The notes beneath the pieces are model-generated. The model did no database searches and had not been told where the DNA came from. It worked only from the letters and a program-made list of their open reading frames with translations. The translations under genes were made by a program, and so were the position numbers. A DNA stretch of 64,000 nt from Candidatus Heimdallarchaeum endolithica (GTDB lineage Archaea > Asgardarchaeota > Heimdallarchaeia > Heimdallarchaeales > Heimdallarchaeaceae): NCBI GenBank assembly GCA_021513715.1, contig CP084167.1, positions 1,248,001-1,312,000 of the forward strand, read 5' to 3'. Every line of letters starts with the position of its first letter. Position 1 is the stretch's first letter. Positions 12,711 through 13,156 of this stretch are shown one piece after another.

Positions 12711-13156
12711 TTAATATGGCGGTATATTTGTAGTATATATAAATTGAACATTGAAACTAGTTTCTCCTTTATCTTCTGAATTGAAATCATCCCAATGATA
12801 TGTGCTCCCGTCTTGATAAACAAAGAAATAGTATATGTCGTAGTTTTCTCCAGTATTGCAAATTAGGTCATCTTTAGGTTCATTATATTTACCCAGGGGG
12901 TTTTTATCATTTTCATAGAAAAACCACCTAACCTTTGAACCTGCAGGAAATCCAAAGTACGTTGTATAGGTGTAACTGTTTACACTTGTATTTCAAGTCT
13001 AATTAACGAAGGACATCCTGCAGGAAATCCAAAGTACGTTGTATAGGTGTAACTTACATATTCTTCATCACCTTTTTCTACACCTGTTTTTGAAAATACA
13101 GAATATTGCATGTCACCCAAATATCCTTCAACATAAAAAGAGAAACCTATTTCCAT
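12711..13156 (-). pseudogene. 122-aa protein gene disrupted by a 77-bp insertion (37-bp duplication plus 40-bp insert)
   Basis: ATG at 13156 reads MEIGFSFY...SYTYTTYFGFPAG and then stops inside the insert. Removing one repeat copy plus the insert (77 bp) restores a continuous 369-nt ORF ending ...FIYTTNIPPY* at TAA 12713-12711. Confidence 0.75.
12940..13053 (-). repeat. Repeat-spacer-repeat unit (candidate ectopic spacer integration / neo-CRISPR)
   Basis: Exact direct repeat, on the minus strand GTTACACCTATACAACGTACTTTGGATTTCCTGCAGG (37 bp; 38 if the shared flanking A is counted), at 13053-13017 and 12976-12940, separated by a unique 40-bp (or 39-bp) sequence. Confidence 0.9.

Follow-up and report, generated by a model that had tools for sequence, protein, structure and literature searches.

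CRISPR-like units outside any array have been described for the type I-E system of E. coli, where over-produced Cas1-Cas2 and supplied oligonucleotides gave rise to so-called neo-CRISPR units (Nivala, Shipman and Church 2018; 10.1101/148544; PMC7054753). Beyond E. coli there are circumstantial cases in two other species; a 2018 paper describes the wild cases in this way and calls the natural frequency of off-target integration unclear. In vitro, the off-target sites of P. furiosus Cas1-Cas2 keep G1, T2/T3 and A6 at repeat-length spacing (PMC6698737). Furthermore, a type III-A Cas1-Cas2 alone was found to be promiscuous in vitro without a host factor, and type III-A systems need no PAM (PMC13769266). 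The process itself is already known from E. coli and from in vitro work; the genome of Candidatus Heimdallarchaeum endolithica holds four unusually clean natural cases. The main text of the genome paper is silent on these scars (PMC8813620).

The genome consists of one contig of 3,326,783 bp with 30.8% GC, of which a stretch of 64,000 bp (positions 1,248,001 to 1,312,000, hereafter the window) was analysed. This window contains an exact direct duplication of 38 bp with a period of 77 bp (12940–12977 and 13017–13054). Since the A at 12977 fits the repeat as well as the insert, 37+40 and 38+39 are both valid readings. The former is the one given in the initial annotation, and in this reading the insert is identical with the entire exact match to its source locus. 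On the minus strand, the first 37 bp copy (13017–13053, the exact match reaching 13054) is coding sequence and begins with GTT as the CRISPR repeat does. The captured 40 nt fragment, the equivalent of a spacer (12977–13016), and the second copy (12940–12976, or 38 bp with the ambiguous A) follow on the same strand. When 77 bp are deleted, the uninterrupted 122 aa frame reported before (13156–12711) is reproduced. Further copies of the duplicated sequence were not found in the genome with up to 12 mismatches; with only two copies in the whole genome, the 37-mer is not the repeat of an array situated elsewhere.

An empty site, that is a single copy without insert and with the frame open through the junction, was found in four related contigs (L015, L016, L037, and L038). 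Two of these are JGI metagenome contigs, one is an ENA contig and one belongs to an NCBI MAG, and all are 97–99% identical to the genome studied here across the gene and its downstream flank. It follows that the insertion is the derived state. The initial annotation had asked for such an allele and had named two observations that would speak against its reading, namely a full transposon between the copies in relatives and homologues not spanning the junction. Neither was encountered: the relatives have an empty site without a transposon, and the homologues do span the junction.

Elsewhere in the genome the 40 nt insert has one sole exact match, at 2916702–2916741 inside the pyruvate kinase gene (pyk). 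The insert had been described as unique, which does not hold in view of this other copy. It is also not a local duplication, as the source is 1.66 Mb away from the scar. In the orientation in which the duplication begins with GTT, the insert is antisense to the pyruvate kinase gene.

In relatives the full-length protein encoded by the target gene comprises 178–181 aa with an N-terminal hydrophobic segment (four database records), and a 133 aa form without this segment is found in two database records. The protein has no Pfam family and no homologue outside its own cluster, and matches in the Atlas are weak only. In the present genome the frameshift leaves an N-terminal fragment of 58 aa (12980–13156, minus strand), which is made up of codons 57–103 of the full gene and 11 insert-encoded residues, and an out-of-frame C-terminal remainder (12711–12976, minus strand; 178 aa in the full form). 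The upstream region and the first 56 codons of the gene are replaced by the decayed remains of a TnpB-type element present in multiple copies (13134–13468, minus strand), which are fused to codon 57 at an ATGGAAA-AGGTT microhomology. Since the insert-free alleles L015 and L037 have the same truncation point and 11 substitutions in common with this genome, the truncation most likely preceded the spacer insertion. The spacer probably landed in an already dead gene. It is therefore doubtful that the insertion knocked out a gene, as the initial annotation had proposed, because the upstream region and the N-terminal hydrophobic segment were already lost. Likewise, the frame of 122 aa is indeed restored by removing the insertion, but it represents a 5'-truncated remnant of the 178 aa gene and not an intact gene. 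No distinction between the truncated gene and its neighbour emerges from the synonymous and non-synonymous counts; since they are uninformative, it is by its truncation that the gene is classed as a pseudogene.

The interval that separates the target gene from the ATPase gene (13134–13640) consists of nested remnants of two multi-copy elements and has three structures, one in L015 and L037, one in L016 and L038, and one in this genome. At another place in the window (59406–59597) a 24 bp tandem repeat lies within an ORF of 1002 aa.

Two arrays with a 37 bp repeat are present in the genome, with 117 and 77 repeats and spacers of 37–45 nt (mean 40.6 nt over both arrays). The array with 117 repeats adjoins a type III-A operon at 1.04–1.06 Mb, which comprises Cas10/Csm1, Csm2, Csm4, Cas6, and intact cas1, cas2, and cas4 genes. 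Its adaptation module Cas1-Cas2-Cas4 is located at 1.047–1.049 Mb and includes a Cas1 of 344 aa, the catalytic motifs of which were assessed by eye. The Cas2 of this module, next to which Cas4 is encoded, has 140 aa and carries a charged C-terminal extension of about 50 aa (L022:18397–18816). The distal end of the array with 77 repeats occupies positions 1–1104 of the window (plus strand). The two arrays have identical repeats, their leaders are identical at 138 of 150 positions, and they have no spacer in common. Two tRNA-Gln genes are situated about 400 bp before the 77-repeat array, just before the window (L043:12560–12744). In the initial annotation the scar had been compared with this array at a distance of 12 kb. 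The repeat length of 37 bp was given correctly; the array is, however, an orphan with its cognate cas1 about 213 kb away. The insert falls into the spacer range, which had been given as 39–44 bp for this array and is 37–45 nt over both arrays. The other arrays of the genome have 30 bp repeats and mostly 36–37 nt spacers. One spacer of a 30 bp array (2106614) matches 34 of 36 nt at 3794–3827 near the genome start, where a provirus integration site has been placed (PMC8813620).

We scanned the whole 3.3 Mb genome for all isolated exact duplications of at least 18 bp with periods of 25–400, a search for similar direct repeats that had been suggested in the initial annotation. It yielded 14 duplications. 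Eight of them keep the frame, and those examined lie within protein repeats. The six frame-breaking duplications are, given as duplication plus insert, 37+43 (at 312013), 37+39 (441555), 36+41 (948726), the scar described above, 31+33 (1839783), and 25+7. Four of these six have duplications of 36–38 bp with a period of 76–80 and inserts of 39–43 nt; three scars with duplications of 36–37 bp have thereby been added to the first one. Because there are only six frame-breaking duplications and four of them belong to one narrow length class, a chance origin of the scar geometry is excluded. All four scars are single units, and their inserts are mutually unrelated and without terminal repeats.

The scar 37+43+37 (312013–312129) lies in one of the multiple copies of an IS-like sequence. 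Its empty site is seen in paralogous IS-like copies and in the sister genome of Ca. Heimdallarchaeum aukensis (3,081,793 bp), and its target matches the middle of the CRISPR repeat at 11 of 12 positions with an offset of 3. The scar 37+39+37 (441555–441667) lies in a small ORF beside a N6/N4 methyltransferase; it is empty in the contigs L049–L051, whose gene region is already divided into pieces of 114 and 58 or 64 aa. The scar 36+41+36 (948726–948838) is intergenic, and its insert matches exactly a stretch of the host gene for a class-V aminotransferase (SufS-like) at 34632. No empty allele of this scar was found in the relatives searched. A shorter scar, 31+33+31 or 30+34 (1839783–1839877), is found in an amidohydrolase-like gene and has an insert that holds a hairpin. 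Its size is near that of the 30-bp-repeat systems. In this genome the gene is inverted beside a multi-copy element; its counterpart in the sister genome is colinear and has the empty site. Empty alleles exist for the scars 312013, 441555, and 1839783. The sister genome has no 37 bp repeat and lacks the regions of the scars 441555 and 948726 as well as, at the DNA level, the gene hit by the scar in the window. A source was not found for the inserts of the scars 312013, 441555, and 1839783: none has an exact match in the viral contigs searched, and no match was obtained for two of them in species genomes or for one in 12 relatives.

Half of the inserts of the four 36–38 bp scars (two of four) are host-derived, versus 0 of 192 spacers in the 37 bp arrays when a full-length match to the chromosome is considered (Fisher p 3e-4). 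Protospacers of the 192 array spacers were not found. The flanks of the two protospacers that could be traced differ upstream (CAA versus TCT) and have AG in common downstream (n=2). Host-derived inserts may survive in scars since a crRNA would not arise next to a non-repeat flank; real arrays would purge or avoid them.

According to the initial annotation, the target agrees with the first bases of the repeat at 7 of 10 positions. This could be confirmed, and an equally good match occurs at 0.74% of the genome positions. Overall, target and repeat are identical at 12 of 37 positions, which is at chance level (p 0.35), and this target resembles the repeat at the G-first end only (G1, T3, A6, and A10). 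When all four targets are compared, each has G as its first base in one of the two orientations (p 0.007; the statistic was chosen after seeing the four sites). The positions A6, A10, and T32 are common to the repeat and all four targets (p 0.006 by simulation, post hoc), and for positions 2–10 the comparison of targets and repeat gave a p of 0.0015, again post hoc.

From these observations we consider it very probable that the scar is a natural off-target, that is ectopic, spacer integration by the host type III-A Cas1-Cas2(-Cas4). Like a neo-CRISPR unit, it combines a duplication of the length of the resident repeat (37 bp, or 38 bp with the ambiguous base) with a 40 nt insert within the 37–45 nt range that comes from an unrelated locus; the site is empty in relatives, and a cognate intact cas1-cas2 pair is present. 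The shared border positions are a weak and post hoc argument for the same reading. The chance level of the overall identity, the lack of similarity to the leader, and the one scar with a duplication of 36 bp are points against it. The central claim of the initial annotation, a fossil of ectopic spacer acquisition, is nevertheless supported by the geometry, the empty alleles, the host-derived insert, the sister scars, and the cas genes, and it is the agency of Cas1-Cas2 that we infer. In the proposed course of events, the module Cas1-Cas2-Cas4 would have captured a 40 bp fragment of the host's own gene for pyruvate kinase. One 3' end of the fragment would then have been joined to each strand of a site weakly resembling the repeat, with 37 bp between the two junctions, and gap filling or repair would have duplicated the 37 bp target. 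The scar presumably persisted since the gene was already 5'-truncated.

We considered several alternatives to Cas1-Cas2 of the type III-A module as the cause of the scar. Insertions of the form X-Y-X could also be made by a process independent of Cas, either break repair capturing short host DNA or another integrase, the CRISPR dimensions being coincidental. The weak overall similarity of the target to the repeat and the lack of a demonstrable PAM at the inserts would fit such a process. However, no continuum of lengths is seen, as four of the six frame-breaking duplications fall at 36–38 and 39–43; the insert junctions show no microhomology of more than 1 nt, and the shared G1 and A6 match the independently reported preference of Cas1 (PMC6698737). 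We therefore regard this explanation as improbable. Still less probable is that a different Cas1 was responsible, belonging to a 30-bp-repeat system, a lost system or a casposase. Two additional cas1 loci do exist at 2108786 (intact) and 3197444 (broken), and CRISPR loci in this genus turn over fast (PMC8813620), but 30 bp repeats with mostly 36–37 nt spacers fit the 31+33 scar only, and all three cas1 loci found adjoin CRISPR arrays.

IS remnants abound in this region, and a transposon footprint or the decayed remnant of a mini-array might be suspected for this reason. Against this, the empty alleles contain no element and one in-frame copy of the duplicated sequence, this sequence occurs nowhere else at 12 mismatches, and the four inserts are unrelated and lack terminal repeats, which makes such an origin very hard to credit. 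An IS or MITE with target duplication was rejected, as the one other copy of the insert lies inside an intact housekeeping gene and the scar inserts are unrelated. Equally hard to credit is an artefact of assembly or polishing, which may be thought of with a genome based on Nanopore reads and polished with Pilon and with no second contig across the entire filled allele on record in the collections searched. The short-read assemblies of the runs SRR15988961 and SRR15988960 (Logan contigs), for which the downstream neighbour of the target gene, a 903 aa membrane protein adjoining an ABC ATPase (9914–12625, minus strand), was used as anchor, are 100% identical to the genome. If the segments are repeated in the reads, contigs are predicted to break at the branch positions of a k=31 graph. 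Indeed, contig ends were located precisely 30 nt inside the segments that are duplicated or shared, namely at 1260969, 2916731 (in both runs), 34661, 441584, and 948755; the break at 1260969 corresponds to the duplication in the window and the one at 2916731 to its pyk source. The contig L035 accordingly starts with exactly the final 30 nt of the second copy, whereas L047, a contig of the second run, ends at a position other than predicted. The breaks are silent on whether the alleles are fixed. Because the short-read assemblies break exactly where the structure predicts, at five break points, the scar is not a long-read artefact, an objection that the initial annotation had raised itself.

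Off-target integration by the type III-A module remains the preferred reading, but the suggestion that it possibly seeded a new array is not borne out. The scar has two copies only, the sequence upstream is coding and identical to the leader end at 7 of 16 positions, and the hairpin of the duplicated sequence has –0.4 kcal/mol compared with –5.3 kcal/mol for the real repeat. With two copies, no leader and no hairpin, the scar is not a working array, in keeping with the single-unit state of all four scars.

One closed chromosome offers four cases; for three of them an empty allele is on record, and two of the inserts could be traced. This opens questions that can be addressed from sequence, namely how often a native integrase misses, what is taken up before selection (self versus foreign), and which target bases are read in vivo. 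The other scars are situated in a copy of an IS, in an ORF that was already split, between genes, and in a gene that has been inverted. These settings suggest that surviving scars sit in already dead or dispensable DNA; if so, the cost of CRISPR adaptation may exceed the visible scars. It is in our view evenly balanced whether wild Asgard archaea routinely acquire mutations through off-target spacer integration, with scars that archive the prespacer pool and the target preference. If true, the native type III-A integrase would account for at least four scars that survived, compared with 192 spacers placed on target, and a scar of its own, shorter size would come from a second system. The scars would preserve an unselected prespacer pool, about half of it host DNA, because they are not turned into guides, and they would record which targets are preferred in vivo by an integrase for which culture studies are not yet feasible.

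Target-site duplications of insertion sequences and casposons are also direct repeats that arise from staggered strand transfer, but their length is smaller, and the element between them measures kilobases and has terminal repeats; the insert described here consists of 40 bp of coding DNA from the host. More similar is the full-site off-target integration by P. furiosus Cas1-Cas2, which has repeat-length spacing, conserved G1, T3 and A6, and low repeat identity in common with the scar; it was observed in vitro on plasmids with a 30 bp repeat, in contrast to the chromosome and the 37 bp repeat here (PMC6698737). The Cas1-Cas2 of Thermotoga profunda is a type III-A integrase as well and is promiscuous without a host architectural protein, but this is a bacterial enzyme studied in vitro with HU as fidelity factor, whereas the system here is archaeal (PMC13769266). 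The neo-CRISPR units of E. coli share with the scar a repeat-length duplication of ordinary chromosomal DNA round a spacer-length insert, outside any array. Unlike those units, the cases presented here are attributed to the type III-A module that an Asgard archaeon naturally carries, and four scars lie in one closed genome, with empty alleles, traced host-derived inserts and no sign of further expansion.
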